Of a DNA stretch of 64,000 nt, positions 2,983 to 52,086 are shown one piece after another. The notes below the pieces were generated by a model. The model saw only the letters and a list, made by a program, of their open reading frames with translations, was not told the DNA's origin and made no database searches. Position numbers and translations under genes: made by a program. Within the stretch, counting starts at the first letter, position 1, and each line of letters starts with the position of its first letter. The stretch spans positions 2,594 to 66,593 of the forward strand of contig CAZYXU010000004.1 of assembly GCA_964650945.1 (NCBI GenBank), written 5' to 3'. Source of the stretch: an uncultured Verrucomicrobiota bacterium. GTDB taxonomy: Bacteria > Verrucomicrobiota > Kiritimatiellia > JAAZAB01.

Positions 2983-4050
2983 TTAAATACGGTCTGTGCA
3001 CAATGTTTTCGAGTTGCGCACATCCGCCGTGCTTTGCAAGATCAATTCCGGCGTGATTAGAATTTCGGGAGATTTGGGCATACGGCCCAGTTCCAAGTGA
3101 TCATAGAGCATCTCGGTGGCCAACCGCCCCTGAAGTGGTTGATTTTGATAAATACTACAATGAACCACACCCAGTCGAAGGCTCCGCAAAACATCATCGG
3201 ATACACCCGTCGCCACCACCCTGACTTTCCCCGCCAATCCAGACTCCACCAGATATCTGCAAATTCCAGAGGCGTTTTCAGTTCCAATATAGATGCCGCC
3301 AATGTCCGGATATTGTTCAAACAGGTTGCGGGCGACCGGATATCCTTTCGCCGGATCATCGTATGTCTCGCCAATTCCAACCAACTTTAACCGGGATTGA
3401 TTCAGCCTGTTCTGAAATCCATCGATTTTAAAGTCGTGATCCAGTATGCCCTTCCGGCCTATGAAAACCGCAACAGACTGCCCCGGGGTCATCCATTCCA
3501 GAACTTCAGCCGCCATGCGTCCACACCGGCGGCAATCATGCCATACCGAACAAATCTGCGGGCCGCCCGGGAGATCGCTCCCCAGCAAAACAAACGGAAT
3601 TTTGGCCTCTTTGAGAATCCGCCAAGCCTCCTTAAGATATTCCGGACTGTAATCGGACAGACACAGAATCAACCCGGAGACTTTGCTGCCAGCCAAAGCA
3701 TTGATGGCTGATACAAACGCCTTATCATCCCCGGCGGGAATGGCCCGCAAAAGCGCATTGACCCTATGATCGCAGAGCTGCTCCAATCTTTCTTTGGCCC
3801 CGTTAATAAGCAACTCCGTATAACTGGGCCAGACATCAGGATAAACCAGCCCGATCGAGAGAACCGGCCGGGCTAGCGCTTTGGCCAAGGTATTGGGCCG
3901 GTACCCAAAACGCGCGGCAGATTTTATCACCAATTCCCGTGTTTCCGGACTGATACGCGGCTTATTATTCAGGGCCTTGTTGATTGTACAGACCGACAGC
4001 TCGATTTTCTCTGCCAACTGCTTGATTGTGATGCGCGAAGGTGAATTCAC
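2983..4050 (-). CDS. LacI family transcriptional regulator
   Basis: The N-terminal HTH is ITIKQLAEKIELSVCTINKALNNKPRISPETRELVIKSAARFGYRPNTLAKALA. A periplasmic-binding-protein-like sugar-binding core follows. The start codon is GTG. Confidence 0.9.
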   Translation of the reverse strand: MNSPSRITIKQLAEKIELSVCTINKALNNKPRISPETRELVIKSAARFGYRPNTLAKALARPVLSIGLVYPDVWPSYTELLINGAKERLEQLCDHRVNALLRAIPAGDDKAFVSAINALAGSKVSGLILCLSDYSPEYLKEAWRILKEAKIPFVLLGSDLPGGPQICSVWHDCRRCGRMAAEVLEWMTPGQSVAVFIGRKGILDHDFKIDGFQNRLNQSRLKLVGIGETYDDPAKGYPVARNLFEQYPDIGGIYIGTENASGICRYLVESGLAGKVRVVATGVSDDVLRSLRLGVVHCSIYQNQPLQGRLATEMLYDHLELGRMPKSPEILITPELILQSTADVRNSKTLCTDRI

Positions 4051-4062
4051 GTAAAAACACCA

Positions 4063-4080
4063 GTGATTAATCGTTTACCC
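4063..4080. promoter_or_regulatory. Candidate LacI-family operator O2 (GTGATTAATCGTTTACCC) in the lacI / URO-D divergent region
   Basis: It shares 14 of 15 positions (GTGAWTAATCGTTTA) with the site at 2927-2941. It lies 13 nt upstream of the LacI start codon and about 160 nt upstream of the URO-D-family gene. Confidence 0.35.
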
Positions 4081-4240
4081 AAAATATAGCGCGACTCCGA
4101 TTTTTGTCAATAAAAAAGTTTGTAAAACGCGCCAGCATCCCTCCATGGCGGGGTCCGGCCGGACTCCACATGACATCACCGGCCGGCATTTGAATGATCT
4201 GTGCTTGACCCATCGACAATATCGCCACTATCATGCGCGC

Positions 4241-12754: not shown

Positions 12755-14158
12755 TCAACTGATCCCGCTTGCATCCAGATCCCGCAGCGCGATCAAGACT
12801 TTTTCCAACCCGATGCCGCGCGATCCCTTCAGTAAAACCAAATCATCCGGGCGCGCGGCGCGCGCCAGGACGGCCGCGGCATCCGCCGGCGTCTGGCGCC
12901 GGAACAAGCGATCGGCGGGCATGCCGCAATCCGCGGCCATATCCGCGACCGCGGACGCCAGCTCTCCAACCGTGATCACCCCCTGCCAGGCATTTGCGGC
13001 CACCAACCGGCCCAGTTCCCGGTGCCTGGCGATGGCGTCGCGCCCCAGTTCCAGCATGCCGCCCAAGACCAGCCATTTACGCTCGCCCGGCAGGGACTGG
13101 AACGTGCGCAACGCTTCCGCCATGCTCAAGGGATTGGCATTATAGGCATCGTTGATGAAGGCGACTCCCCGCCAGGCGCAACGCTCCCAGCGCATGGGCG
13201 GCGCCCGGTAATTTTCCAAGGCCCGGATGATGTCCGGCCAGGGCGCCCCCCAGGTCCGCCCCAGCGCCGCGGCCAGCAAAATATTGGCCAGATTGTGCCG
13301 GCCGGGCAGCGACGGGCGCAAGGACCATGTTGACGCTGCCGCCCGTTCGCCCAGGATGGCCAGGCCATCCGGCCGGCTCCGCGCGTAATAATCGGCCGGG
13401 GGCGCCGGCCGGCCGTCATCCAAGGCGACGGTGACCACCGGCCCGGGCGCGGCCGCGCGCAACAGGTCGAACCATGGCACATCCGCGCGCAAGACCGTCA
13501 CGCCCGCGGGCGGCAGGGCGCGCAGCAACCTGGATTTTTCCCGCGCAATCGCCTGTTCGGATTCAAAGAATTCGAGATGCACGGGGCCGACATTGGTGAC
13601 CACGCCCCAATCGGGGGCCAGCACCCGGCACAGGGGATCCATTTCGCCGGGATGATTCACGCCAACTTCAAAGACGCCGGTCTGGGCATCCGCGGGCATA
13701 TTCAGCAGGCTGAGCGGCAAGCCGATGTTATTGTTCCAATTGCCGCGCGTGCGGGCCACCACCCCCTGGGTCGCCAATACGTCGGCAATCATTTCCTTGA
13801 CGGTGGTTTTGCCCGCGCTGCCGGTGACTCCCACGATGCGCACTCCCCGCGCCCGGCGGTAGCCGGCGGCCATATCCTGCAAGGCCTGTAAGGGATCGGC
13901 AACCCGCAGCAGCGGCCCGGCGGCCGCGCCCGCAGTGCGCGCATAAGTCCGAGCAACCACCGCGCCGGCGGCGCCCAGATGCAAGGCGTTGGGCACGAAA
14001 TCATGTCCATCGCAATGCTCGCCCCTTAAGGCCACGAACAAGCAGTCCGCGCCGGCGGCGCGCGAATCGACGCTGACGGCGGCCAGTTTCGGCGGAACGC
14101 CATGCTCCCACCTCCCGCCACACCACTGCGCCAATGAAAGTGGATTGAGTCCGCGCAT
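12755..14158 (-). CDS. murF: UDP-N-acetylmuramoyl-tripeptide--D-alanyl-D-alanine ligase
   Basis: A Mur ligase with P-loop GVTGSAGKTT. I place the start at ATG 14158 (MRGLNPLSLAQWCGG), one nt after the murE stop. The ORF track's start at 14206 would overlap murE by 47 nt. Confidence 0.9.
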   Translation of the reverse strand: MRGLNPLSLAQWCGGRWEHGVPPKLAAVSVDSRAAGADCLFVALRGEHCDGHDFVPNALHLGAAGAVVARTYARTAGAAAGPLLRVADPLQALQDMAAGYRRARGVRIVGVTGSAGKTTVKEMIADVLATQGVVARTRGNWNNNIGLPLSLLNMPADAQTGVFEVGVNHPGEMDPLCRVLAPDWGVVTNVGPVHLEFFESEQAIAREKSRLLRALPPAGVTVLRADVPWFDLLRAAAPGPVVTVALDDGRPAPPADYYARSRPDGLAILGERAAASTWSLRPSLPGRHNLANILLAAALGRTWGAPWPDIIRALENYRAPPMRWERCAWRGVAFINDAYNANPLSMAEALRTFQSLPGERKWLVLGGMLELGRDAIARHRELGRLVAANAWQGVITVGELASAVADMAADCGMPADRLFRRQTPADAAAVLARAARPDDLVLLKGSRGIGLEKVLIALRDLDASGIS

Positions 14159-14159
14159 G

Positions 14160-15638
14160 TCAGGTTTTAAGCCCCAGGCATTCCCGCACCACCTGGCGGT
14201 CGTCAAACGGAATTACCGTGTCGGCAAATTCCTGATAATTTTCATGGCCCTTGCCGGCCACCAACACCACGTCGCCGCGCTCGGCCATCGTCAGCGCCCG
14301 GACAATGGCCTCGTGCCGGTCTTCCACCACCTCAAAGTTGTCATGCCCGCTGAATCCGGCGCGCACCTGGGCGATGATGTCCGACGGATTTTCCTTGCGG
14401 GGATTGTCGGATGTCAGAATGGCATAATCCGCCAATTCCCCGGCCACGGCGCCCATTAACGGCCGTTTGCGCCGGTCGCGGTCGCCGCCGCAGCCAAACA
14501 CCACGATCAGGCGGCCGGCGGTGATTTCGCGCATGGTGGTCAGCACATTTTTCAAGGCATCTTCGGTATGGGCGTAGTCCACAAACACCTGGAAACCGGC
14601 GTTGTTTTCAATTTCCTCCAGACGCCCGGGGACGGATTGCATGGCGTTCAGCACCGGCGCAATCACCGGCAATTCCACGCCCAGCGCGGCGCAGGCGCCG
14701 AACGCTGCCAGGGCGTTATAGACATTATACCGTCCCAGCAGGCGCAGCCGCAGGGCAACCGTCCCCCAGGGACTGACGACATCGAACGCGCTGCCCCGGG
14801 CGCTTAATTCAAGGTTGACAGCCCTGACCATGGCGGCCTGATTTTGTATGCCATAGGAAAAGACCGGGGCGTGTTTTTCGGCCAGTCCCAGGAGGCGGGC
14901 GCCGTGCGGATCATCCAGATTAATTAAAGCGGACTGGCCGGGCCGGCCGCGCAATCCGCGGAAGAGGAGGCTTTTAGCCTCGTAATACCCGTCCACGGTT
15001 TGATGGTAGTCGAGGTGGTCATGCGTCAGATTGGTGAAGACCGCCACGTCGTAATCGATGCCCCATACCCGCCGCTGAACCAGGCCGTGCGAGGAAACCT
15101 CCATGATGGCGCTTTGACAGCCCGCATGCGCCATTTGCGCGAGCATGTTGTGCAAGTCAATTGCTTCCGGCGTGGTGCGCGGCGCGGGAATCGAGCGATC
15201 GCCGATTTCATACCGGATCGTGCCGATCAGACCCGGCCGTAGCCCGGCCGCCCGTAAAACATTGCGCGCCATGTTCGCCGTCGTCGTTTTGCCGTTGGTG
15301 CCGGTGATGCCCAGCATGCGCAGACGGCGCGCCGGGTATTCATAGTAGGCCGCCGCCATCTCCGCCATGACCTGGCGCACATCCGCCACCCTGACAAACA
15401 GGGCATGGCCGCGGGCCAGGGTTAATTCCTCCCGGGTGACGATCATCGCGGCGCCCCGGCCGAGCGCATCCCGGATAAAACGGCTGCCATCCAGATTGCG
15501 GCCCGGCACCGCGAAAAAAGCCTGGCCGGGCTTGACTTGCCGGGAATCGAACGCCAACCCCTTGATCTCCGCTTCAGCGTCGCCCTGCACGCTGAGAACC
15601 TGTGTTGCGGCCAGCAGAATGCTCGCCTTCATTGTCAT
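14160..15638 (-). CDS. murE: UDP-N-acetylmuramoyl-L-alanyl-D-glutamate--2,6-diaminopimelate ligase
   Basis: A Mur ligase with P-loop GITGTNGKTT. The DNPR motif (LTSDNPRKENP) is characteristic of meso-DAP-adding MurE. Confidence 0.9.
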   Translation of the reverse strand: MTMKASILLAATQVLSVQGDAEAEIKGLAFDSRQVKPGQAFFAVPGRNLDGSRFIRDALGRGAAMIVTREELTLARGHALFVRVADVRQVMAEMAAAYYEYPARRLRMLGITGTNGKTTTANMARNVLRAAGLRPGLIGTIRYEIGDRSIPAPRTTPEAIDLHNMLAQMAHAGCQSAIMEVSSHGLVQRRVWGIDYDVAVFTNLTHDHLDYHQTVDGYYEAKSLLFRGLRGRPGQSALINLDDPHGARLLGLAEKHAPVFSYGIQNQAAMVRAVNLELSARGSAFDVVSPWGTVALRLRLLGRYNVYNALAAFGACAALGVELPVIAPVLNAMQSVPGRLEEIENNAGFQVFVDYAHTEDALKNVLTTMREITAGRLIVVFGCGGDRDRRKRPLMGAVAGELADYAILTSDNPRKENPSDIIAQVRAGFSGHDNFEVVEDRHEAIVRALTMAERGDVVLVAGKGHENYQEFADTVIPFDDRQVVRECLGLKT

Positions 15639-15707
15639 GCTTCCTTCTCACAAACTTCCGCCGCCCGTTCGGAGGGCAAACGGCTAACATTCCCCAGCGC
15701 CCCGCCC

Positions 15708-17435
15708 TCACCGGGCGGCGGCGCATTCCACCGGCGTCAGCGATGGAATATCCAGATAGCGCACCGCCTGCGAGGCAATGGCGCTGAAAACCGGCCCGGC
15801 GGCGGCGCCGCCGGTGCGCGTCTGTTTGGGCTCATCCAGCACCACGATAATCGCCAGTTGCGGCGCCTCGGCCGGGATGAACCCCACGAACGAAGACATA
15901 TTCAACAAGTCCGAATAACCGCCGGGTACGGGCTTCTGCGCGGTGCCGGTCTTGCCCCCGACGGTATAGCCGGCCACGCACGCCCGCCGGCCGGTACCGC
16001 CTTCCTCGGTCACGCGGGTCAGCAATTTTAACATGCAGGCGGCCGTATCGGCGCTGATTGGCCGGCCCAGTTCCACCGGCTCCTGGCGCGACAAAACCTG
16101 GCCTTCGCCGTCGCGGATTTCCCGGACCACGTACGGGCGCAGCAGCACGCCGCCGTTGGCGATCGCGCACATCACTCCCAGCATTTGCAGCGAGGTCACG
16201 GCCACTTCATGCCCCATGGCAATGCGCGTGATGCTCAAGGGCGTCCAGCGCGTTACGGGATGGAGGGTGCCGCCCTCCTCGCCGGGCAAATCTATCCCCA
16301 TGGGCTTGCCCAGTCCGAAGGCCGTCAGGTAATCGTGCAAACGGGCCGGGCCCAATTCCAAGGCGATTTTGGCCGCGCCGATATTGCTGGATTTCTTGAC
16401 GACATCGGCCACGGTGAGCCGCCCGTAGGGATGGTAATCGCGCAGCGGGCGCCGCTGGTAAATCCAGGCGCCGTTTTCGCAATCGAACACCTGCCCGGGA
16501 TGCACCACCCCCGCGTCCAGCGCCGCGGCAATCACCGCCATCTTGAAAGTCGAGCCGGGCTCGTAATTATACGCGATGCAGCGGTTACGGCGATTTTCCG
16601 GCGCCGCATTGCGAAAGTCGTTGCCGTCATAATCCGGGTAGCCGGCCATGGCCAGAATTTCCCCGGTGCGCACCCGCTCCACGATCGCCCAGCCCGCCAG
16701 GGCGCGCTGCTCCTCCACCGCCTGGCGCACCGCCTGCTCGGCAATGTATTGCACATATTGGTCCAGGGTTAAAACCACATCCGCCCCGGGCCGCGGCCGG
16801 ATTTCCAGCAGGCGCCGATCGTACAGTTCCCGCCGCCGGCCATCCAACTCGCTGATCAAAAGGCCCGGCACGCCGCGCAAGTAGCGTTCCCAGCGCTGTT
16901 CCACGCCCGCGCTGCCCTGCCTGGCCAGGTTGACATATCCCAGCACATGGCACAGACTGGGACCGCGGGGATAGGCGCGGACCATGAATTCCCGCAGGAA
17001 TACCCCCGGCAACTGCAGGGCGCGCAATTGCTCCGCCACCGCCTGGTCGACGGTCCGGCCGTAGCCCAGCACCGTGACATCGCGGCGTTCCGGGCGGTCA
17101 AGCTGCACGCGCAAGCCGGCGGCATCCAAATCCAGCACCCGCGCCAGCTCATTGACCACCAGGTCCAAGCTCTGGTTTTCGGCGATCAATGCCGGATCGG
17201 AGCGCACTTCCTGGCGCACCAGGTCCAGGGCCAGAATATTTCCGTTGCAATCCAGGATCTTGCCGCGGCCGACAGTCAGGTTTTGCTCCAGCCGGCGCAA
17301 CTCGTCGATGCGCGCCCGCCGCGCATCGCACGGCCCGGCATGCAGGAAAACCAGGCGCGCGCTCAACCCGCCCATCACCATCACGAGCAGGCTCAGCGCC
17401 AGCCATAACCGGATTTGCAGCTTGCGGTCAGTCAT
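15708..17435 (-). CDS. ftsI: Peptidoglycan D,D-transpeptidase FtsI (class B PBP)
   Basis: It has an N-terminal TM anchor, a PBP dimerisation domain and the transpeptidase motifs STFK (GSTFKMAV), SSN (KKSSNIG) and KTG (GGKTGTAQK). Confidence 0.9.
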   Translation of the reverse strand: MTDRKLQIRLWLALSLLVMVMGGLSARLVFLHAGPCDARRARIDELRRLEQNLTVGRGKILDCNGNILALDLVRQEVRSDPALIAENQSLDLVVNELARVLDLDAAGLRVQLDRPERRDVTVLGYGRTVDQAVAEQLRALQLPGVFLREFMVRAYPRGPSLCHVLGYVNLARQGSAGVEQRWERYLRGVPGLLISELDGRRRELYDRRLLEIRPRPGADVVLTLDQYVQYIAEQAVRQAVEEQRALAGWAIVERVRTGEILAMAGYPDYDGNDFRNAAPENRRNRCIAYNYEPGSTFKMAVIAAALDAGVVHPGQVFDCENGAWIYQRRPLRDYHPYGRLTVADVVKKSSNIGAAKIALELGPARLHDYLTAFGLGKPMGIDLPGEEGGTLHPVTRWTPLSITRIAMGHEVAVTSLQMLGVMCAIANGGVLLRPYVVREIRDGEGQVLSRQEPVELGRPISADTAACMLKLLTRVTEEGGTGRRACVAGYTVGGKTGTAQKPVPGGYSDLLNMSSFVGFIPAEAPQLAIIVVLDEPKQTRTGGAAAGPVFSAIASQAVRYLDIPSLTPVECAAAR

Positions 17436-28279: not shown

Positions 28280-28426
28280 ATGAAGGTAACAGCTCGGTCT
28301 CCTGACGTGCTTGTCTTCTTTGTGTCGCGCGACACACTGGCCAAACTCGTGCCGCGGAATGTAATCCATCTCGATCATCATTGTACCGGACAGCAGTGGT
28401 TTGATACGATTGAACCGTCAGAGTAA
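28280..28426 (+). CDS. Possible 48-aa ORF inside the AT-rich island (doubtful)
   Basis: The sequence is MKVTARSPDVLVFFVSRDTLAKLVPRNVIHLDHHCTGQQWFDTIEPSE. GAGG lies about 10 nt upstream. It is too short for the ORF track, and I recognise no family. Confidence 0.2.
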   Translation: MKVTARSPDVLVFFVSRDTLAKLVPRNVIHLDHHCTGQQWFDTIEPSE

Positions 28427-28470
28427 ATTTATCAATATCAAATTTCAGTGGACTTTTGAAAGTAACTCAA
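28423..28470 (+). repeat. AT-rich ~48-bp motif, copy M1 (GTAAATTT..ATCAAATTTCAGTGGACTTTTGAAAGTAACTCAA)
   Basis: The 34-nt core at 28437-28470 matches 29602-29635 at 30 of 34 positions by hand count. The copy ends 2 nt before the GH16 ATG. Confidence 0.8.
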
Positions 28471-28472
28471 GC

Positions 28473-29462
28473 ATGCACGCTATGCGAAAAATAATCCCCG
28501 GTATCCTGCTGGTGATCTTGTCCGTATCCGCGGCCCATGCCTTGCCGCCTGTTCTCGCGCAGGGCTGGCATCTGGTGTGGTCCGACGAATTCACGGGCGT
28601 GGCGCTGGACGGAACGAAATGGGAGCACGCTCCCGAGTGGAAGAGAAGAGAGAACCAGTGGTGGTCGGATCAGGACGCCTATTTGGACGGAACTAACAAT
28701 CTGGTTCTGCGCATGCGGCGCAACGACGGTGCGATCTACGCCGGCGCCATCCGGACCAGGAGAGATTGGCCGTATGACGGCCAGATCTTATTCGAACGTA
28801 AGCATGGCTATTTCGAGATCCGGACGACCTTACCCGTGATCCCGAACGCCTGGGGGGCATTCTGGATGGTGCCGTCCGGATCCAATCCCTATACGGTCAC
28901 GAATGGCAGCGATGGTTCCGAGATCGACATTTTCGAGACCATTCATTCCACCCAAGGCTGGATCAATCACGCCATCTACTGGGGTGCTTACGGGGCCAGC
29001 AAAGATGTGACGAACAAGCCCGGTCTTTACGAGGGCTACCACACCGTCGGGCTGCTCTGGACGGACAACGAGTACCGCTTCTATGTAGATGACGAGGAGA
29101 CGTGGCGCACCACGGCCAATAATGGCGTCATGCAGGTGCCAGCCTATTTGAAGATCACGATGGAAGCGAATCCGGGCGCATACGACCATTTAGCCACGCC
29201 CAAGACCATGCTGGTGGACTACGTCCGAGTCTATGCGCCGGTCCCGCCCGCCGGGAGCATCATTAGTATTGCCGCCGACAGCGGCCACACCTTTCTGCAA
29301 CGGCGAGGCGCTTGGTCCAATCTTCTCTGTATGGTAGATTCCGATGCTCGCACCGATTTGCTTTTGACCATGGCCGGGCTGCAGCGCGGACTGATGAAAT
29401 TGAGTCAACAACTTTCGATTTTTCAGGCATCATTAAAAACACACATCGTTTTTTACAAATAA
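28473..29462 (+). CDS. GH16 family glycoside hydrolase (beta-glucanase/laminarinase-like), secreted
   Basis: This is ORF 28401..29462, with the start placed at ATG 28473 (MHAMRKIIPGILLVILSVSAAHA, a signal peptide). It has WSDEF and the catalytic ExDxxE motif (GSEIDIFE), and LVDYVRVY marks the end of the jelly-roll. The ~70-aa C-terminal tail is atypical and AT-rich. Confidence 0.85.
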   Translation: MHAMRKIIPGILLVILSVSAAHALPPVLAQGWHLVWSDEFTGVALDGTKWEHAPEWKRRENQWWSDQDAYLDGTNNLVLRMRRNDGAIYAGAIRTRRDWPYDGQILFERKHGYFEIRTTLPVIPNAWGAFWMVPSGSNPYTVTNGSDGSEIDIFETIHSTQGWINHAIYWGAYGASKDVTNKPGLYEGYHTVGLLWTDNEYRFYVDDEETWRTTANNGVMQVPAYLKITMEANPGAYDHLATPKTMLVDYVRVYAPVPPAGSIISIAADSGHTFLQRRGAWSNLLCMVDSDARTDLLLTMAGLQRGLMKLSQQLSIFQASLKTHIVFYK

Positions 29463-29589
29463 AAGATCGCCCTGCGGGCGAGGCCATTATGCCGCAACTG
29501 CTGTGTTGGCAAGGGCTTGGAGCATATGAATACACCGGCGCCCTTGCCGCCGCGCATCGGCGGCATGCTGACCTCATCACAGATTCAGG
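29461..29589 (+). repeat. 129-nt structured repeat element, copy 1 (candidate structured RNA)
   Basis: It aligns without gaps to 50441-50569, with about 105 of 129 positions identical by hand count. The nested helices are 29480-29495/29560-29575 and 29508-29516/29540-29548. Confidence 0.8.
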
Positions 29590-29635
29590 TAAATTTTAAA
29601 CATCAAATTTCGGTGGACTTTTGAAAACAACTTAA
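29589..29635 (+). repeat. AT-rich ~48-bp motif, copy M2
   Basis: The sequence is GTAAATTTTAAACATCAAATTTCGGTGGACTTTTGAAAACAACTTAA. It follows structured repeat copy 1 directly and lies 100 nt upstream of the beta-helix gene. Confidence 0.8.
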
Positions 29636-31382: not shown

Positions 31383-33497
31383 ATGCAGCTTGAAGATATT
31401 ATGAAAAAAGGCCGGTTGTTGGCGGTGGCTTGCCTCGCGGGGCTCTGGTTTGCCGGCGAAGCGGCCGCCGGCGCCGTCCAGCCGGTTACGGATGCCGCAG
31501 CATCGCTGTGGATTGACTACTTGATTCCGCGACCCAAGGAAATCCACATCGAACGCAAACTGACCATTCCCGCCTCGGCGGTAAGCGTGCGCGCCGACCC
31601 GGACGCCGGCGTGGCGGCGCGACAGGCCGCTTCGGAATTACGGGATTTATTCGGACCCGCAACGACAAACCTTCCGGCAACGGCCCCCGGCGGTTTTACA
31701 ATCGTTCTGGGCCGTGTGGCGGCGGATAAGCGCGTGGAGGGTCTTGATACGGCCGATCTTGAAAGATTGCGCATGCTGCCCAATTCCCGGCAAGCGTATT
31801 TGATCCGGCCGGCGGGCAACCGGAGGCTGGTGATTGCCGCGCTGGATGAACGGGGTTTGTATTATGGCGTTCAGACGCTGAAGCAACTGGCCACGCCCTT
31901 TCTCAAGGATGGCCAGGTAATTTTGCCGTTAGCCGTGATCACCGATTGGCCGGATCTGGAGGAGCGCGGTCTCTGGAATTCCCCTCGTCAAACACCAGGA
32001 TTCATGCAGTGGATGGCCGGATTGAAGTTAAATTTCGAGCATTTCGGGCATCCCGTCAATTTGAACCCAGACGAGGAACGGTGTCCGCCGTTGCCCATGG
32101 AACAAATCCAGCAGGCGCGCGCTTACGCCTTGCATCTCATGCCGCATTGTCAACATTATGATTTCTGGGTGGCTGACGCCAGGAACAAGCCCTATTATCC
32201 CGCGGATTTGATCGGCCGCGGCGCCACGGCGCGCAATCCGGCGTCCGTCGCCAGTCCGGATTATAACCAGGATCTCCGCGCCCCCTGCGCCTCCAATCCG
32301 CGTTTGCGGAATTATCTGACGGAATGGCTGCTAAGCGCGGGCGGGCAGGGCGTCCGGGAAACATGCTTATGGATGACGGAGTATCAACCGTCGTATTGCT
32401 CCTGCGAAAAGTGCCTGCCGGAAGGCAGCGAGCGGCGCCAACTGCAATTGGAAACTATCGCGAGCGTGGCGGCGATCGCGGCGGCGCGCAAAACCTATCC
32501 GGACCTGGTGACGCGCATATTCATCACCACGAAGAATGAGCAGGAAAGCGCGGAATGCCTGGCGCTGCTGCCCCGTGATGATTCCTCCATCAGGGCGGAT
32601 GTCTATTCCCGCACCGCGGCGGTTGACGCCCATGCGGCGGCCGGCAATTGGGTGGCCAGTTACGGCGGCGCCGGCGGCGGCGCGGTGTATCTTGACCACC
32701 TTAGCCGCGGGGCTTATCAGTTCCGCCTCTTCCCCGCGCCGGCAGCCGTGCGCGAATCGCTGCAGGCGCATTGCGCGATCGGATATGACGGCGTCTATAC
32801 GCTGTCGTATGGAGTTCCGGGACTGGACTGGCGGGAAAAAGGATATGTTGACCGGCAATACGGCGACTATCTCATCCCCATGCTCGCGGAATGGTCATGG
32901 AATGTCTCCGGACGCACCGTGCGTGAATTCAATCGCGCCTGGGCCACGCGGCGGGGCTACAACGATATTGACAAGGCGCTCGCCTGGCTGGAGCTCATGG
33001 CGCCCCTTGAGGAATTTGCGTACTGCGCCCTGCGGGATATTCGCCAGCACGCCGAAATTATACGCCGCCGTGAACCGATCCGTTTCACCCATGGCCCGGC
33101 AGCGGAAGCCATCATGCCTGAAAATGCCGAACGCCAGTTTGCCGAATTGATTGCTGCGGCCGGCCGCGCCGCGCAACTGGCGGCAGAACTGCAGGCGCCG
33201 GATATGCTCGCCGAGTCAGGCCATGTCCGGGCGGCGCTCGACCTGTTGCGCGGCCTATGCCGGCTGTCGCTTGCCGTCGCGCCCGCCGGCAGTCAGACGG
33301 CGGTTGCGCCAGCGCCGGCCTTGGATGCAATCCGCGAGGCGGCGCGTCAAATGACCGCGCATACGGCCGCCGTCATCCAAGCCTGGCCGGACGTGCCGGC
33401 AACCGCCAAAAAGCAATTTACCGAGCATGCAAACGCCTATATCGCGCAACAAGTCCAGACCATTGAATCAGCCGTCGGAACGGGCCGGGTAAAATAG
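31383..33497 (+). CDS. Secreted GH20-N-terminal-domain protein with a divergent TIM-barrel-like catalytic region (paralog 1 of 3)
   Basis: It has a signal peptide (MKKGRLLAVACLAGLWFAGEAAAGA). LIPRPKEIHI, GLYYGVQTLKQL and ITDWPDLEERGLW match the GH20 domain-2/catalytic-domain junction. It also carries CASNPRL, WMTEYQPSYCSCEKC and LAEWSWNVSGRTVREF. Confidence 0.7.
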   Translation: MQLEDIMKKGRLLAVACLAGLWFAGEAAAGAVQPVTDAAASLWIDYLIPRPKEIHIERKLTIPASAVSVRADPDAGVAARQAASELRDLFGPATTNLPATAPGGFTIVLGRVAADKRVEGLDTADLERLRMLPNSRQAYLIRPAGNRRLVIAALDERGLYYGVQTLKQLATPFLKDGQVILPLAVITDWPDLEERGLWNSPRQTPGFMQWMAGLKLNFEHFGHPVNLNPDEERCPPLPMEQIQQARAYALHLMPHCQHYDFWVADARNKPYYPADLIGRGATARNPASVASPDYNQDLRAPCASNPRLRNYLTEWLLSAGGQGVRETCLWMTEYQPSYCSCEKCLPEGSERRQLQLETIASVAAIAAARKTYPDLVTRIFITTKNEQESAECLALLPRDDSSIRADVYSRTAAVDAHAAAGNWVASYGGAGGGAVYLDHLSRGAYQFRLFPAPAAVRESLQAHCAIGYDGVYTLSYGVPGLDWREKGYVDRQYGDYLIPMLAEWSWNVSGRTVREFNRAWATRRGYNDIDKALAWLELMAPLEEFAYCALRDIRQHAEIIRRREPIRFTHGPAAEAIMPENAERQFAELIAAAGRAAQLAAELQAPDMLAESGHVRAALDLLRGLCRLSLAVAPAGSQTAVAPAPALDAIREAARQMTAHTAAVIQAWPDVPATAKKQFTEHANAYIAQQVQTIESAVGTGRVK

Positions 33498-41150: not shown

Positions 41151-43766
41151 ATGCGCATGAATACCGCCAGCAATGCAGGTTTCTTCCAAAGAATGACGTT
41201 GGTAATGATGGCCAGTTTGGTCGTTCATGGATGCCTGGCAACGACAACGCCCAGGCCGCAGGATGCGGCATCGGCCCAACGTTGGACCGACCGCCTGATT
41301 CCGCTGCCGAAGAACATAACGGTCGCGGGCAGCGTTACCGTGACCGTTGAAAACATTTTTCTGGAACTGCCGAACATCAAGGATTCCCGCGAAAAAACCA
41401 TTCGCGGGCTGCTTTCGACCTGTGCGAAAGGAAATCGGTCTGACGCGACCGCCCGGATCGTATTGCAATTGGTGGCATGGCAGGATGCCGGGCTGCCGGC
41501 CGCCGTGCGTTGTCTTGAATCCGTGCCCAACCATGATCAGGCTTATGCCATTATCCATGAGGCAAATAACAACCGGCATGTCTTCCGCCTGCTGGCCTCA
41601 ACTCCGGAAGGATTGCTGTATGCGGCGCGCACTTTTGCCGGCCTGGTTTCGCCTCAGGGACTGCCGGCGGGCTTAGCGGCGGTTGAGCTTCCTTTGGTCA
41701 CGATTACGGATTGGCCGGATATGCAGGAACGGGGATGGTGGGGAAGTAACGGCCATTATAACCTGGCATGGCACGCCCAGTGGAAACTGAATTTGCATGT
41801 GGGTCATTGTACACTTCAGTTTGACATGCGCCAGACTAACGCGCTGACCGCCGGCCGCTGGCCGTCCCTGATGATCGTTCAGTCGAATGAACAAGCACAA
41901 CTGGTAGCACACGCCACGGAGGTCGGGATCCGCTTGGTGCCGATTATCCCGCATATCGGCGACGGCCAGATGAAATTGATCCGCGACATCCAAAATGAGC
42001 CGGCGCTGGCTTTCGCACGTGATATTCTGGCGCAGGAAGGCCCGCAGGGCGAAAAAGCGCGCGGTTTATGCATGTCCAACCCGCGGACGACTCAATTGCT
42101 CAGTGATGCTTTCGTGCAGGTCGTAGCCTTATCTTCTTCTGCTCAAAAGCCGTGTGAAATCTGGCTGACTGAAGGCGGCAACGTGCAGTGCCACTGCCAT
42201 GAATGCCGTGGCAGGAACGGATATGTGCTGGAAGCAGCCGGAATTATCAAGGCCTACAAATCGGCGCTCCGGCGGGAACCAGCGCTGCAATTGCGCTTGA
42301 TGAGTTCGCAAGGCTCCTACCCGGTTGATCCGCAAATCATCAAACTCTTGCCGCCAGGCGCAGGATTTGTGTATTACAATGGATTTTTGAGCTACAGCGC
42401 CGACCATCAGCCATTGATTCCCGATTACATCACGGAATTCGCGAAAACCGGGCATTATGTTTCCGCCTATATGGACGCTAATCCCTCTTTTTTTGCCGTA
42501 TTTCCCGGAAGCATGCCGCAATTTATCCGGTTCCGCGCCCGGGAACTGTGTCAAAAACGATTAAGCGGTGTCGAGGCCTACTGCGTACCTGACCGCCATT
42601 TTTATGAAGTCAACATGGCGGCGCTGGCGGAATGGACGTGGAATATGAACGGCAGATCCGTCAGCGATTTCGCGCGCGCCTTCGCCACCATCACCGGCGG
42701 GTGTGAACCGGAGCTCTACGCGAATTGGATTGAACATGCCGGCGAGGCGGCCTGGTGGTTGGCGGACAGCCGTTTTATCGAGGCCTTGTGTTACCAGCCC
42801 AAAGCGATCACCCAGGCCATTGTACCGCAATACCCGGTGGGGGACGTGCGCTGCAAGGTGTATCCCATTCCGGAATTGGACCGCACCCTGCAGCACGCGC
42901 GCGCGGCCATGGACCTGGCCATCCGGTCCGGCAATGTATTAATGCAATGCGAATCGGCCTGTGTACTGGCCGGACTGTACGCCTATGAACTGGCGGAGGC
43001 CATCCGGCAGGATAACACACAAGGCGCATCACCCGCCGAAATGGAATTGAAAATCAACCGGCTGGAAATCTATGCCCAGCAAATCCGGGGCTATCACGAC
43101 GCCTGGTATTACGCGATTGTATCGAATAAAGCGGCTTTGCCTAAAAGCCCGCTGTATCCCATGTTCGGGAAGACTGTCGGCGAGACCTACAAGGTGCCCC
43201 GCCTCAGCATGCCCGAATATGCGCTTTTCCGCGCCTGCGATGCCTGGCGCACGCAGTTGAAATTGCCTTTGCCGATCGTGGGACGCTGGTCGTATGCTGA
43301 TTTTGGGACAAACGGCCAGGCGCATCTTTCCTTTGATGCAACGTCTTTGGCGCCGTCCCACGCGACCGGCGTAAGCGTCTTCCTGGAATGGGGCGGAGGG
43401 GATACAATTCATACCAAATCCATGACACTGGTCGTATCCAACAGTCAGAGCGGGATGGTGCACACCGGCGCGCTCAACAGCCTTTCGCGGCGCTTGAACA
43501 ATCGCACCGAAGAGCGTTTCTTTGACGAGACATTCGCGCTACCGCCGCGCAATCCGGCTGATCGCCTGCTGTTGCAGGTAAATCTCGAGATTCCCGAGAT
43601 AACCCGCCCGCTTCGTTACAATCCGTTGACGGACGGAGTCTTGACTGCGGTTCCCGCATCATTGACGAATATTGACGGAAGGATCCTGGTCCGCCCGGTC
43701 TGGCTGAAGGGCGAAACAGGCGCGCGAGATTTGTCGGCAGTCAATCCATGGAAACAGACGGAATGA
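41151..43766 (+). CDS. Secreted/lipoprotein-like GH20-N-terminal-domain protein (paralog 2 of 3) with a long C-terminal extension
   Basis: This is ORF 41106..43766, with the start placed at ATG 41151 after GGGAG. It carries MTLVMMASLVVHGCLA, LIPLPKNITVAG, GLLYAARTFAGL, ITDWPDMQERGWW, CMSNPRT, WLTEGGNVQCHCHEC and LAEWTWNMNGRSVSDF. Confidence 0.7.
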   Translation: MRMNTASNAGFFQRMTLVMMASLVVHGCLATTTPRPQDAASAQRWTDRLIPLPKNITVAGSVTVTVENIFLELPNIKDSREKTIRGLLSTCAKGNRSDATARIVLQLVAWQDAGLPAAVRCLESVPNHDQAYAIIHEANNNRHVFRLLASTPEGLLYAARTFAGLVSPQGLPAGLAAVELPLVTITDWPDMQERGWWGSNGHYNLAWHAQWKLNLHVGHCTLQFDMRQTNALTAGRWPSLMIVQSNEQAQLVAHATEVGIRLVPIIPHIGDGQMKLIRDIQNEPALAFARDILAQEGPQGEKARGLCMSNPRTTQLLSDAFVQVVALSSSAQKPCEIWLTEGGNVQCHCHECRGRNGYVLEAAGIIKAYKSALRREPALQLRLMSSQGSYPVDPQIIKLLPPGAGFVYYNGFLSYSADHQPLIPDYITEFAKTGHYVSAYMDANPSFFAVFPGSMPQFIRFRARELCQKRLSGVEAYCVPDRHFYEVNMAALAEWTWNMNGRSVSDFARAFATITGGCEPELYANWIEHAGEAAWWLADSRFIEALCYQPKAITQAIVPQYPVGDVRCKVYPIPELDRTLQHARAAMDLAIRSGNVLMQCESACVLAGLYAYELAEAIRQDNTQGASPAEMELKINRLEIYAQQIRGYHDAWYYAIVSNKAALPKSPLYPMFGKTVGETYKVPRLSMPEYALFRACDAWRTQLKLPLPIVGRWSYADFGTNGQAHLSFDATSLAPSHATGVSVFLEWGGGDTIHTKSMTLVVSNSQSGMVHTGALNSLSRRLNNRTEERFFDETFALPPRNPADRLLLQVNLEIPEITRPLRYNPLTDGVLTAVPASLTNIDGRILVRPVWLKGETGARDLSAVNPWKQTE

Positions 43767-43803: not shown

Positions 43804-46080
43804 ATGTCCGCTATGAAAAAAACACCGGTGTTGAAAAACAAACCGGCGCCCGGCGCGCCGCCATCCTACGACATTTTCCCCATACCCCGGCAAGTCCGCA
43901 GCCTGTCCCCGCTCCGGCTGGATGCGCGCCATGGCAAGCCGCGCATTCTGCTGGCAAGCTGCGCCAAAAATCAGCCGTTGATCCGTCTGGCCATCCAACA
44001 GGTTGCCGCATTCTGCAAAAGCGGCCGGGTGACCCGGCGGCCATCGGGGCAATTGACGATCATGCTCGCCGTCAATCCGCAGACCGTCCCCGCGGACCAA
44101 ACCGGCCAGGGTTACCGTCTTTGCATTCATCCCGACCGTTCCATCAGCATCACGGGCGCCACGCCGCTGGGATTGCTTTATGGCGTGCAGACGCTCGCCC
44201 AATTGTTGGAACAATCGGCGGGCCGGCTGCCGTGTGTGGAAATCACGGATTGGCCTGATTTTGAATACCGCCTTTCCTCGAATTGGCTGCAAAACTGCGA
44301 AGTGGCGCGGTGGGGTTTCGACCGGGGCCAGGGTTGCACCCGGTTCATCGCGGATGGCAAAAAGCGCATTGACTGGGCGTTGAAGTATAAAATCAACATG
44401 ATTTATTTCGACTTCTCTCACGGCGACAGCCGCGTTGAAATGTTTCAGGGCTATACGCGGATTCTCTCCACCCTGAATCGCTATGCGCGGAACCGTGGTA
44501 TCCGGCTGATGACCGGCATCATCACCGTCTGCGGTATGCTTAACCGTAAGTCATATCCGCACGGGACGCCATATCAATGCCCGACCCGGATGATTCAGGG
44601 ACAGAATGTCGGGGATCCCCCATTTGGGGGATGGTGTTGGTCGAACCGCCAGGCATGGGGAATCAAATGCGCAAAAATCCGGCGTTATGTTCAGGCCAAC
44701 GAACCCGGGGCGTTATACATCCACGGAATTGACATTGCCCGTTTCAAGGATGTCGCGGCCTCGTGGAAAACACGCTGTCCGCGATGTCGCAGGTTATGGC
44801 CGGAGGATGACATTGCCTCGCCGCATGGTATGGCCGGCGCCTATGCCCATATCGACAACCTGATGCTGGATGCCATTTTCAGCGTCAAAAACCAGCGCAC
44901 CGGCTACGATGCCCGGCGCGATTGCCTGGTTTGCCTGATTGCCCCGGGCTACGGCTTTTATTTCGAAGACGATGACGATTGGCAGGGCGAAATCCGTTAT
45001 TACGAACAATTGAGCCGCGGCCTGAAATATGTCGATAACGTCCAAATCGGCATCCGCGAACAAGGTTTCAACAAGTCCAATCGACGCCGGCGGGTTAGCG
45101 AGCTGGCGGCGCGATTGCGCCGCAACGCTCAAGGCCATGGCGTGTTCGTGGATGTCTTTTCCGGATATCCTGGCGGCGGCTGTACCACCGAATTTCCGGG
45201 CAGCGGCTTTGTCTATTACCGCCCCATCCAACCCTTGCCGCTCATTTATCCCACCTTTGCCGGCGCCGCTACGGTGGCCTCCATGGAAGCCCACGCCGAT
45301 TTTGAGGCGCACACCATTCTCTGCAATAATTTCGCTTGGAACTCCCGATCCGGCGGAACGGCGCTGCTGCGCAACTACCGGGAATGGCAAAATATTTACG
45401 AAGGCGCATACCGCGGATTTTATTACCCGGACAGGATTTTCGGAAACGACGGCATCCTGCAAACGATTTGCCGGCATCTTTACGGCGTGCGGGCCGGCCA
45501 GCTGATTGCCCAGGCTTACAGTTTAAGGAGCATTGACGAGGATGAGGCGCTGCCGCTTTTCCAACCCGAATCGCTGGTGCCCATGCGCGCAGCCTGGAAA
45601 CCGGCGCTGGCTCCCCCAATCCATCTGGCATGGCAGCGGCGCTGGGAACGGATCGAACAACTCACCCGCGAAGCCGGCCGGCTCATGCAAGCCGGCCGAT
45701 CGCAGCCGGATTTCAACCCCACTGCCGCCGCCACCATCGATTGGCAGATCAAAGTGCTTGGTTTGGGCGTTAAAATGACGGCGTTTTTAAAAACAGCGCT
45801 GGGGCTCTGTGCCGGGAAACAAGGCACTGACCATCGGCATATCTTCCAGAACTGCCGATGGATGTTGTGCGACTTGCAGCGTTTCATTACCACAAACTTT
45901 CCATCCGACACCAGACAGTTTTTCCAGCCGGCCGAGAGGGAGACATCCATTGATCAATACACACCAAACGATCCCACCCTTTATCCCGTACATGGCCTGC
46001 TTTCCAATATGTGTTTATGGAAACATTTGTTGCAAACATTTACCGCGGATTTAGGTGAAATTAAACGACTGAAACGCTAA
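43804..46080 (+). CDS. GH20-N-terminal-domain protein (paralog 3 of 3), with no obvious signal peptide
   Basis: It carries IFPIPRQVRS, GLLYGVQTLAQLL, ITDWPDFEYR, WCWSNRQA, WKTRCPRCRRLW and NNFAWNSRSGG. Confidence 0.7.
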   Translation: MSAMKKTPVLKNKPAPGAPPSYDIFPIPRQVRSLSPLRLDARHGKPRILLASCAKNQPLIRLAIQQVAAFCKSGRVTRRPSGQLTIMLAVNPQTVPADQTGQGYRLCIHPDRSISITGATPLGLLYGVQTLAQLLEQSAGRLPCVEITDWPDFEYRLSSNWLQNCEVARWGFDRGQGCTRFIADGKKRIDWALKYKINMIYFDFSHGDSRVEMFQGYTRILSTLNRYARNRGIRLMTGIITVCGMLNRKSYPHGTPYQCPTRMIQGQNVGDPPFGGWCWSNRQAWGIKCAKIRRYVQANEPGALYIHGIDIARFKDVAASWKTRCPRCRRLWPEDDIASPHGMAGAYAHIDNLMLDAIFSVKNQRTGYDARRDCLVCLIAPGYGFYFEDDDDWQGEIRYYEQLSRGLKYVDNVQIGIREQGFNKSNRRRRVSELAARLRRNAQGHGVFVDVFSGYPGGGCTTEFPGSGFVYYRPIQPLPLIYPTFAGAATVASMEAHADFEAHTILCNNFAWNSRSGGTALLRNYREWQNIYEGAYRGFYYPDRIFGNDGILQTICRHLYGVRAGQLIAQAYSLRSIDEDEALPLFQPESLVPMRAAWKPALAPPIHLAWQRRWERIEQLTREAGRLMQAGRSQPDFNPTAAATIDWQIKVLGLGVKMTAFLKTALGLCAGKQGTDHRHIFQNCRWMLCDLQRFITTNFPSDTRQFFQPAERETSIDQYTPNDPTLYPVHGLLSNMCLWKHLLQTFTADLGEIKRLKR

Positions 46081-50284: not shown

Positions 50285-50440
50285 GTGAAAAAGTTTGATC
50301 TTTTCCGCGCAGTTTGTATGATCAGGCGTTGATGAACTTATTGGAACCTGAATCCGTGACAGGGGTTCGACAATATTTGCTCATTTAAAGACTTATGAAT
50401 TTTGATTTAACACCAAAATAATGACATCCCATGATTCCAG

Positions 50441-50569
50441 AAAAAACCGCCCTTTGGGTGAGGTCATTATGCCGCATCTGCTTTGTTGGCAAGGGTTCCA
50501 TGTATAAGCATACCCCATCACCCTTGCCGCCGCGCATCCGCGGCATACTGTCCTCATCACGGATTCAGG
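50441..50569 (+). repeat. 129-nt structured repeat element, copy 2 (candidate structured RNA)
   Basis: A gap-free alignment to 29461-29589. The inner helix is GGCAAGGGT/ACCCTTGCC (50488-50496 / 50520-50528). The element ends 17 nt before the NfeD start codon. Confidence 0.8.
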
Positions 50570-50586
50570 CGGGACAATCTGGCCCG

Positions 50587-52086
50587 ATGCCGGCAGGGCA
50601 ATTGCCACCCGCCGGTAGAGCGCGGTGGGGAATCTGCCTGGCAATCGCCTGGATCATTGGAACCGCTGGCCTGATGCGGGCGGCGCCCGCGGATGTGCCG
50701 GCCATCCCAACCAACCCTCCGGCGGCCATCACGGCGGCCGCCCTGGCGCCTGCCGCCGCGGCCGGGGCGTTGACGTATGTCATCCCGATTGAAGGCCCGA
50801 TTGAAAAAGCCCTGCTTTATGTGATCCGCCGCGGAATGATGCAGGCGGAACAGCGCCAGGCAGCCGCCGTGGTTTTTGTCATGAACACTCCCGGCGGACA
50901 ATTGGACGCCACGGAGGAGATCGTCCGCCTGCTCCTTAAAACCCGCGTGCCCACCTACACGCTGGTGCAATCGCGCGCCTTGTCCGCGGGCGCCATCATT
51001 GCCATGGCCACCGACCGGATTTACATGACGCCCGGCAGCATCATCGGCGATGCCCTGCCGATCATGATCACGCCTTTCGGCGGCGTCCAGGAACTGCCGG
51101 AAGCCATGCAGGAAAAGGCGGTTTCCGCCGTATCCGCCATGATCCGCTCCGCCGCCCAGCAAAAAGGCCATGACCCGCAACTGGCCGAGGCCATGGTGCG
51201 CCGTGAATTGGAATTTAAAATCGGCGACCTCGTCATCAGCCCCGCCGGACAGCTCCTGACGCTCACCGACACCGAAGCCGCCCGCCCGGCCGGCGCACCA
51301 GGGCGGCCGCTGTTATCGCAGGGAACAGTCGGCGGCTTGACTGAGTTGCTCAAGCGCGAGGGCCGGGATGCGGCCGAGACCGTCACCCTGCAAGTGACGG
51401 CGGCGGAAAAAATCGCGCGCCTGATCGAATCTTTTTCCGTAATTCTGCTGGCCGCCGGCCTGCTGGGATTATATATTGAATTTAAAACCCCGGGATTCGG
51501 TCTGCCGGGGATCGCCGGCATCATTTGCCTGGCCTTGTTTTTTTGGGGCCACCATATCGCCGGCTTGTCCGGCATGGGCGAAATCCTGCTTTTCACGCTC
51601 GGCGTCGTTTGCCTGCTGGTGGAGATTTTTGTGACGCCCGGCTTCGGAATGCTCGGCGTCACCGGGATCCTGCTGGTATTGTTAGCCCTGTTTTCCGCCA
51701 TGGCGCCCGGTCTGCCTGATTTCACCTGGCCTTCTGCGGTCAAAAACCTGCAAATCCCATTGCTGAAGGTTGCCGGCTCGGTGGTGCTGTGCGGGCTGGC
51801 CGCCTGGATGCTGGGATCGCGCCTGCCGCATTCCCCGCTGTTCCGGCGCATCATGCTGCAAGCGGCCGACGACCGCCGCAGCGGTTACAGCGCCGGCCCC
51901 GACACCCGCCAATGGCTGGGGCAGACCGGCAATGCCCTGACGGCCTTGCGCCCGGCCGGCACGGGGGCTTTCGGGGAACACCATCTGGACATTGTGACGC
52001 GCGGAGAATACCTGGCGGCCGGCACCCCGGTCAGGATTGTGGAAACCCACGGCGCCCGGATTGTTGTCGAGGAGGCTAAAGCGTAG
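50587..52086 (+). CDS. NfeD family membrane-bound ClpP-class serine protease (long form: protease + TM region + OB domain)
   Basis: This is ORF 50431..52086. I place the start at ATG 50587 because the upstream part of the ORF reads through the repeat element. The ClpP-like region is YVIPIEGPIEKALLYVIRRG, VFVMNTPGGQLDA, ALSAGAIIAMA. Several TM helices follow, then a C-terminal OB region (ALRPAGTGAFGEHHLDIVTRGEYLAAGTPVRIVE). Confidence 0.8.
   Translation: MPAGQLPPAGRARWGICLAIAWIIGTAGLMRAAPADVPAIPTNPPAAITAAALAPAAAAGALTYVIPIEGPIEKALLYVIRRGMMQAEQRQAAAVVFVMNTPGGQLDATEEIVRLLLKTRVPTYTLVQSRALSAGAIIAMATDRIYMTPGSIIGDALPIMITPFGGVQELPEAMQEKAVSAVSAMIRSAAQQKGHDPQLAEAMVRRELEFKIGDLVISPAGQLLTLTDTEAARPAGAPGRPLLSQGTVGGLTELLKREGRDAAETVTLQVTAAEKIARLIESFSVILLAAGLLGLYIEFKTPGFGLPGIAGIICLALFFWGHHIAGLSGMGEILLFTLGVVCLLVEIFVTPGFGMLGVTGILLVLLALFSAMAPGLPDFTWPSAVKNLQIPLLKVAGSVVLCGLAAWMLGSRLPHSPLFRRIMLQAADDRRSGYSAGPDTRQWLGQTGNALTALRPAGTGAFGEHHLDIVTRGEYLAAGTPVRIVETHGARIVVEEAKA

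Follow-up and report, generated by a model that had tools for sequence, protein, structure and literature searches.

INTRODUCTION

The ERIC (IRU) and Correia repeats of enterobacteria and neisseriae, respectively, resemble MITEs (miniature inverted-repeat transposable elements), form long hairpins in transcripts, and can alter the expression of neighboring genes. Here, we analyze a 64,000-nt stretch of contig CAZYXU010000004.1 from an uncultured Verrucomicrobiota bacterium of the class Kiritimatiellia (the whole stretch is called the window below), in which an initial annotation had marked a 129-nt structured repeat, present at 29461-29589 (copy 1) and 50441-50569 (copy 2), as a candidate new non-coding RNA. 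Our results indicate that this repeat is very probably the conserved right-hand portion of a non-autonomous transposable element, i.e., a MITE, with ends like those of the IS1380 family of insertion sequences.

ISEcp1, a member of the IS1380 family, has the left inverted repeat (IRL) CCTAGATTCTACGT and produces 5-bp duplications (PMC6061673). The element described here is similar to a MITE of this family in that it is 223-255 nt long, has no coding capacity, carries inverted repeats starting with CCT[G/A]AATCC, occupies some orthologous sites and not others, leaves 5 surplus bases at the filled site, is inserted in or beside gene ends, and is found nested with an IS1380 element. It differs in that no fully matching partner transposase was found, its target duplications are degraded or unclear, its interior is unrelated to that of the IS1380 element at one of the loci compared (L024; loci are denoted by L numbers), and its most conserved part is the internal hairpin rather than the inverted repeats.

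With the ERIC and Correia repeats, the element shares an imperfect palindrome of ~100-150 nt, intergenic positions as well as positions within operons, occurrence in both orientations and in long and short forms, and the potential of the whole element to form a stem-loop when co-transcribed. However, there is no sequence similarity, the hosts belong to other phyla, the palindrome constitutes only the right half of the element next to a non-palindromic left module, and the element is known here from DNA alone. REPIN and REP sequences also have a long two-armed hairpin with a variable tip, compensatory changes in the arms, and no obvious target duplication, whereas the present element has ends like those of DDE-type insertion sequences, a low apparent copy number, and an extra non-palindromic module of ~90-120 nt. 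Finally, like the Rickettsia palindromic elements (RPEs), it is a mobile palindrome that has entered a coding region while the gene still looks usable: the insertion follows codon 5 of nfeD, and from within the element an open reading frame (ORF 50431-52086) runs on into the gene. In contrast to the RPEs, to which it has no sequence relationship, the element is probably left untranslated, with nfeD most likely restarting at ATG 50587.

RESULTS

The 129-nt repeat belongs to a 223-nt unit bounded by inverted repeats

The two 129-nt segments are identical at 105 positions with zero indels, which agrees with the hand count of the initial annotation, and the number of such matches expected by chance is 0. 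Their similarity falls to background directly 3′ of 29589 and 50569 and within ~10 nt or less 5′ of 29461 and 50441. Pattern searches, nhmmer and BLAST, and a covariance model (R1) run with filters off recover only these two copies in the window. One further candidate at 60767-60839 on the minus strand, a G+C-rich hairpin sharing a 12-nt word with copy 1, scored 20.7 bits with the covariance model (rough E = 8e-4) and was judged a chance match.

Scanning one genome per species with a 25-base pattern yielded two more copies, one in a Verrucomicrobiota metagenome-assembled genome (MAG; L001) and one in a Kiritimatiellia MAG (L002). Of the two ends, the L001 copy has only the right one. The L002 copy, in contrast, extends further: window 50347-50569 and L002 2193-2415 are 88% identical over 223-224 nt, with sharp borders and unrelated flanks, and the similarity ends exactly at a pair of inverted repeats, of which the left one, CCTGAATCCGTGA, is at 50347 and the right one, TCACGGATTCAGG, closes at 50569. 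The extent originally assigned to copy 2 delimits the hairpin module correctly, but the whole unit is longer, starting at 50347. The two ends (50347-50364 and 50552-50569) match exactly over 13 nt and at 15 of 18 positions overall, and the predicted fold of the whole unit pairs the left end with the right end. Between the left end and the hairpin module, positions 50365-50440 contain a single weak sigma-70-like match (50407-50435) and show no significant similarity to the left modules of a second subfamily (subfamily B, described below) or to the sequence upstream of copy 1.

In its complete form, the element would consist of a 13-18 bp terminal inverted repeat, an A+T-rich left module, a small hairpin, a hairpin of ~96 nt, and the right inverted repeat (Table 1), with a size of 223 nt here and about 244-255 nt in subfamily B. 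The small size (below ~500 bp) and inverted ends of a MITE are found in the 223-nt unit, in L002, and in subfamily B alike. Mobility is evident from the unrelated flanks of the copies (window, L001, L002, and L021 through L023) and from the comparison of filled with empty sites.

Table 1. Positions of the element, its parts, and the neighboring features at the insertion sites (window coordinates unless a locus is named)
Feature	Position	Strand	Basis or remark
Complete element, long form, subfamily A, 223 nt	50347-50569	+	88% identity to L002; absent at the orthologous junction of L013/L014
Left terminal inverted repeat, CCTGAATCCGTGACAGGG	50347-50364	+	Reverse complement of the right end
A+T-rich left module, ~76 nt, differs between subfamilies	50365-50440	+	Conserved with L002 only
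Hairpin module of copy 2, including right end	50441-50569	+	R1 141.4 bits; fold -52.5 kcal/mol, z = -5.3
Right terminal inverted repeat, minus-strand reading CCTGAATCCGTGATGAGG	50552-50569	-	Comparison of ends
Orphaned first five codons of ancestral nfeD (ATG AAC TTA TTG GAA)	50332-50346	+	Align with nfeD start of L013/L014 (MQLY.., MQLLE..)
Putative 5-bp target-site duplication, TGGAA and CGGGA	50342-50346 and 50570-50574	+	5 surplus bases
nfeD as now translatable	50587-52086	+	ATG 50587 in frame, aligned with codon 10 of uninterrupted homologues
Copy 1, hairpin module and right end only	29461-29589	+	R1 144.7 bits
Small 5′ hairpin, CGCCC-TGC-GGGCG	29468-29480	+	Helix 1, CCC/GGG invariant
Long imperfect hairpin, ~96 nt	29480-29575	+	Folding; seven-copy alignment
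Right terminal inverted repeat of copy 1, minus-strand reading CCTGAATCTGTGATGAGG	29572-29589	-	1 mismatch to the end of copy 2
37-bp palindrome, CCTAAATCCTGCAAAC-TTGAC-GTTTGCAGGATTTAGG	L024 9930-9966, also L025-L029		34 nt upstream of DUF3786 gene

The complete copy interrupts nfeD

Comparison with syntenic loci demonstrates filled and empty sites. The window NfeD protein (Pfam domains NfeD1b_N, NfeD_membrane, and NfeD) has homologues that are 80% identical in L013 and 81% identical in L014. Gene order in L013 is as in the window (ptsI, PAS-REC, nfeD, and a small nfeD-domain gene, as well as the downstream genes). In both loci, 6-33 nt separate the stop of PAS-REC from the start of nfeD, and the element is absent from this junction. 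The left flank in the window aligns to both loci through the first five nfeD codons, and the right flank resumes within the next codons. With the element taken out in silico, the window is colinear with the two empty sites; the sole departure is a surplus of exactly 5 bases where the flanks join, which the 5-bp duplications of ISEcp1 fit. The putative duplicated 5-mers match today at 3 of 5 positions.

The element is therefore inserted after codon 5 of nfeD in the window, and the interrupted gene apparently survives by restarting downstream. The insertion leaves the start of nfeD ambiguous; comparison with homologues favors ATG 50587, at which the window protein (MPAGQLPPAGRARW..) aligns with homologous sequence (..IPAGRGPATVRLRR..). 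The public gene call begins later (50674, 470 aa, P0001). Conversely, the 551-aa ORF 50431-52086 begins at an ATG (50431) inside the element and runs through the hairpin module in frame with nfeD.

The left-end fragment of another copy lies at the extreme end of contig L013, so that a genome with an empty nfeD site still carries the family. Another Kiritimatiellia MAG (L015) has 390 nt of unrelated sequence upstream of its nfeD. Separately, a weak partial match to the hairpin module at L015 8081-8137 on the minus strand (nhmmer E = 5e-5; 7 bits with the covariance model) is intergenic, upstream of the PAS-REC gene, and may be a relic copy.

A diverged subfamily includes truncated and deleted forms

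We compared a profile of the minus-strand translation of both window copies with 1.84 billion representative proteins (HMMER), which gave three predicted proteins reading into diverged copies at loci L021, L022, and L023. Searching L023 with R1 revealed a second, decaying long-form copy there (3447-3579, 60.8 bits). These four copies (L021, L022, L023a, and L023b) constitute subfamily B, with the same hairpin layout as subfamily A. The long-form ends, CCTAAA[A/T]CCTGCA...TGCAGGATTTAGG, are homologous to those of subfamily A, and the elements measure about 244-255 nt. As to the host, L023 proteins share 90%-identity clusters with proteins of a Deltaproteobacteria MAG, and the DNA has 42% G+C, compared with 60% in the window. 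The two L023 copies (3447-3690 and 3860-4114, both on the minus strand) have the same orientation, ~170 nt apart, upstream of one gene, and the proximal one is decaying, with indels and weakened helices.

Six close relatives of L023 (L024 through L029) have a 37-bp perfect palindrome upstream of a DUF3786 gene. The same site in L023 holds a full 244-nt copy, and its right flank is shared with all six relatives. The palindrome joins 12 nt of the left end to 25 nt of the right end and represents a “mini” version of the subfamily B element, produced by internal deletion. After nfeD, this is the second site at which related genomes differ in the element.

Beyond these genomes, a plasmid collection gave no match to the element. 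Pattern scans of metagenomes and viral contigs gave only matches of 19-28 nt, which were judged to be due to chance. A six-frame peptide profile returned nothing from a set of 5.8 billion proteins, a search whose list of candidates was probably taken up by common low-complexity words.

The ends resemble those of IS1380-family elements

The L024 locus also carries an IS1380-family transposase gene (14120-15535; NF033539, 201 bits with a cut-off of 180), ~4 kb from the 37-bp palindrome. This gene belongs to a 1.75-kb insertion sequence (13988-15735). The ends of the latter are CCTAAGTCCAGAGT and (reverse-complemented) CCTAAATCCAGAGT, and the first 9 bases of these are also found at the ends of subfamily B. 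Specifically, the terminal bases are CCTAAGTCC.. and CCTAAATCC.. in the insertion sequence, CCTAAATCC in subfamily B, and CCTGAATCC in subfamily A. The match to IS1380-family ends thus extends over ~9 terminal bases only. The insertion sequence is nested in the left module of a subfamily B copy (remainder at 15736-15870) whose own sequence breaks off after the 5′ strand of the inner helix. Altogether, L023 and L024 contain two copies plus a fragment.

These ends also bear on the class of enzyme involved. A palindrome of the REP/REPIN type, moved as single-stranded DNA by a RAYT (Y1/HUH) rather than a DDE transposase, would likewise appear as an imperfect hairpin of ~100 nt in which two inverted arms show compensatory changes and enclose a variable tip, and the unclear target duplications agree with this explanation. 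The 37-bp perfect palindrome as the minimal form is REP-like too, in form only. Against these points stand the IS1380-like ends, the 5 surplus bases at the filled site, the long non-palindromic left module of the complete unit, and a copy number that appears low; moreover, no RAYT gene was noticed in the loci examined, although whole genomes were not searched. We consider RAYT-driven movement very improbable. Several offsets were tried for the target duplication. One of them, with a left end 3 nt longer and a duplication of 2 bp, agrees with 3 of 5 copies, but these additional 3 nt lack conservation, and we rejected it as over-fitting.

Copy 1 lacks a detectable left end

Neither a left inverted repeat nor a left module was detected upstream of copy 1 using hidden Markov models (HMMs) of the left module and local alignments. 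An apparent similarity of the A+T-rich sequences upstream of copy 1 and of L001 to the left module failed both HMM and shuffle tests. Since it has no left end, copy 1 is probably an immobile remnant or a one-ended product.

The reading frame of the upstream GH16 gene extends to 29462, i.e., up to copy 1. No clean empty site was found for this copy, as the loci of GH16 homologues (L016 through L020) are not syntenic downstream. At ~29345, the GH16 protein diverges in its C-terminal region from the closest homologue, with which it shares 93% identity up to that point, and the region from there to 29462 is shortened and diverged relative to homologues bearing a C-terminal extension of ~45 residues. 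This suggests that the 3′ end of the GH16 gene adjoining copy 1 underwent rearrangement or decay.

Two further repeats were noted in the window. One, a 45-nt motif at 28426-28470 and 29591-29635 (82% identical; 20-nt core ATTTC[A/G]GTGGACTTTTGAAA), starts 2 nt past copy 1 and is no part of it. Its two instances closely precede the GH16 gene (true start ~28482) and the beta-helix gene (29735), respectively; the second overlaps a sigma-70-like match (TGGACT-16-TATTAT), and the motif probably serves these glycan-degradation genes as a common promoter or operator. Part of its core, in reverse complement (GTCCACC), occurs at L015 9900-9912 upstream of nfeD. The other, a 44-nt direct repeat at 31926-31969, 41691-41734, and 44230-44273 (66-75% identical), has its first instance inside the GH20-domain ORF 31383-33497 and looks like a conserved coding motif of paralogous glycoside hydrolase genes.

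The hairpin is kept paired, with no strand preference

Folding reproduced the plus-strand structure proposed for both copies by the initial annotation, including the outer helix, the inner helix, and the small 5′ hairpin. The long hairpin of copy 1 is built from an outer helix (29480-29495/29560-29575), a middle helix, an inner helix (29507-29516/29540-29549), and an apical stem (29522-29525/29530-29533). The last of these revises the earlier description of a 23-nt loop: the length was right, but the loop is not open, as it holds a conserved 4-bp stem, GUAU-N4-AUAC. Differences between the copies do fall there, although at 10 of 24 the share is somewhat lower than the half that had been given. 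The reported changes from C:G to T:A in the closing pair of the inner helix (29516/29540) and from U.G to U-A in the outer helix (29488/29567) are both real. The plus-strand folding energy of copy 1 is -57.6 kcal/mol (z = -3.3; for copy 2, see Table 1), and the minus strands give comparable values (z = -3.7 and -3.9). Two peculiarities set the L001 hairpin apart. It contains a 27-nt insertion (~2815-2841, minus strand) that forms a small hairpin of its own (CTGCC...GGCAG) within the internal loop separating outer and middle helices, and its outer helix is better paired than in the other subfamily A copies, with a G-C pair in place of a T.C mismatch.

To quantify pairing, we aligned seven copies over the module and compared a 40-pair structure with 500 column shuffles and with 3′ partners slid out of register. 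Standard pairs occupied 89.3% of cells, compared with 82.0 ± 1.1 in the shuffles (0 of 500 reached the observed value) and 29-45% with slid partners. Pairs changed on both sides numbered 8 across the seven copies, among them four or five in the outer helix (between subfamilies A and B), one at the closing pair of the inner helix, and one in the apical stem, where U-A is replaced by C-G in two copies. The inner helix, GGCAAGG/CCTTGCC, is invariant in all seven. These data show maintained pairing, and the description of a structured repeat holds, but the events are few, on a small tree, and fall short of proof of selection on an RNA. Template switching between the arms of an inverted repeat can create paired changes in a single step, with no need for RNA selection.

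Nevertheless, such changes are what one would expect if the module were a small non-coding RNA gene, or an RNA “cargo,” for which the mobile features are merely the vehicle. The near-invariance of the inner helix across two phyla and the greater conservation of the module relative to the rest of the element agree with this explanation. So does the minus-strand end of the module, where the small hairpin is followed by a T-run and resembles a terminator (29481-29467); a terminator scan called this site at copy 1 only, and a hairpin with a T-rich run can be seen by eye in copy 2, L002, L022, and L023a. However, no conserved promoter-like sequence occurs on either side of the module. The Rfam comparison proposed by the initial annotation matched no family, with zero hits in the whole window at Rfam 15 gathering thresholds and only chance-level hits around both copies in a permissive search (E up to 10). 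The earlier argument that G.U pairing identifies the plus strand as the RNA fails across the family, where 18 G.U cells on the plus strand compare with 13 A.C/C.A cells (G.U on the minus strand); the similar counts indicate no strand preference. Orientation relative to neighboring genes is mixed, and several copies are truncated or decaying (L023b, L024 15736-15870, and the 37-bp form). Among the copies compared, promoter and terminator positions, context, and orientation are not conserved as they would be for an independent small-RNA gene. Given also that arm-to-arm template switching yields double changes, we regard an RNA gene, or a cargo that uses the element as its vehicle, as improbable, and the designation of the repeat as a new non-coding RNA gene is not supported: the module is the right half of a unit that is bounded by terminal inverted repeats and present or absent at orthologous sites.

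Neither a peptide nor regulation of adjacent genes explains the repeat

Six-frame translations revealed no reading frame conserved across copies, and the plus-strand ATG frame meets a stop after 12 codons in copy 2, as had been noted. In 7 of 8 copies, one minus-strand frame stays open, and its subfamily A version shows a CxxC...CxxxxC pattern, which raises the question of a small cysteine-rich peptide (M-R-x-x-C-R-x-C...C-x4-C). Its four cysteines are conserved in the four subfamily A copies, and three predicted public proteins include the frame as a C-terminal extension. Yet these “proteins” are read-through products of unrelated genes, e.g., shikimate kinase, and the cysteine codons lie inside helix-forming segments. 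In addition, copy 2 and L002 differ in this frame by ~6 non-synonymous changes versus 1 synonymous change, with the stretch between two indels frame-shifted, and subfamily B lacks the fourth cysteine. Based on this substitution pattern and on the indels that break the frame in L023b, the peptide was rejected as extremely unlikely, and the initial view that selection does not act on a peptide stands.

A role as cis-regulatory RNA for the adjacent genes, be it leader, riboswitch, or terminator, can be weighed in the same way. Copy 2 and L023b lie 18 and 35 nt, respectively, upstream of start codons, and in the window and in L023, the element has the direction of its neighbor genes. In L001, L002, and L021, it lies antisense at gene 3′ ends, and the genes read into its minus strand, taking their last codons and stop codon from it. 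However, both orientations thus occur, and the neighbors are functionally unrelated (GH16/beta-helix, PAS-REC/NfeD, RsmE-type methyltransferase/epimerase, aroK, and DUF3786). Orthologous genes in close relatives are found without the element, and these empty sites contradict a cis-regulatory role, to which we give hardly any credence.

DISCUSSION

The mobile nature of the element is established by empty sites, inverted ends, and varied contexts. Its boundaries at terminal inverted repeats, the empty sites, the mixed orientation, the interruption of nfeD, and the truncated and 37-bp copies together argue for a MITE rather than a discrete non-coding RNA or a cis-regulatory RNA. The initial annotation had listed a hit to a known MITE or REP family as refuting novelty; the marks found are those of a MITE, but the family itself appears to be undescribed so far, and a shallow literature search gave no description of an IS1380-related MITE.

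Several observations weigh against this interpretation. The copy number is apparently low, with 2 copies in 64 kb and 1 exact pattern match in the L002 genome, and conservation is higher in the internal hairpin than in the inverted repeats, contrary to the usual MITE pattern. In copy 1 and L001, half of the four subfamily A copies, no left end is detectable; their near-identical start points are poorly explained by simple independent truncation, and a one-ended or short-form mode of movement is possible for them. In the window and the Kiritimatiellia loci, tblastn recovered no IS1380 transposase, and no transposase flanked by matching ends turned up there either. The L024 IS1380 element shares only 9 end bases and hence is not the direct partner, and its insertion has no target duplication relative to intact subfamily B copies. 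Finally, flanking 5-mers match at 2-3 of 5 positions (16 of 30 in total, compared with ~35% for mismatched flank pairs).

With these points in mind, we propose that the MITE would be moved in trans by an IS1380-type DDE transposase encoded elsewhere, which would bind both ends and insert the element with a 5-bp target duplication. The hairpin may be kept paired because copies need it to propagate or to be tolerated, e.g., as a stem-loop in host transcripts like that of the ERIC and Correia repeats. Alternatively, replication-templated repair between the two arms could maintain the pairing.

It is also conceivable, though unlikely, that the ~96-nt hairpin and the small hairpin together form a functional structured RNA or a single-stranded DNA signal that has spread between phyla as cargo of the MITE. 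If so, selection on structure would explain why the hairpin is conserved above the ends of the element, and the module might be an RNA controlling the partner transposase or a portable transcript-processing or terminator module adopted by host genes.

In summary, the MITE interpretation removes a false lead, in that a repeat that folds well, shows compensatory changes, and had looked like a new RNA gene turns out to be a mobile element's conserved core, which calls for caution in covariation-based discovery of non-coding RNAs in repeats. It documents a seemingly undescribed MITE family with IS1380-like ends in the poorly studied Kiritimatiellia/Verrucomicrobiota and in a Deltaproteobacteria lineage, together with a clear example of a MITE inserted in the first codons of nfeD. 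The one feature that might reward experimental work is the unusually strong conservation of the internal hairpin, which spans phyla and includes paired changes.

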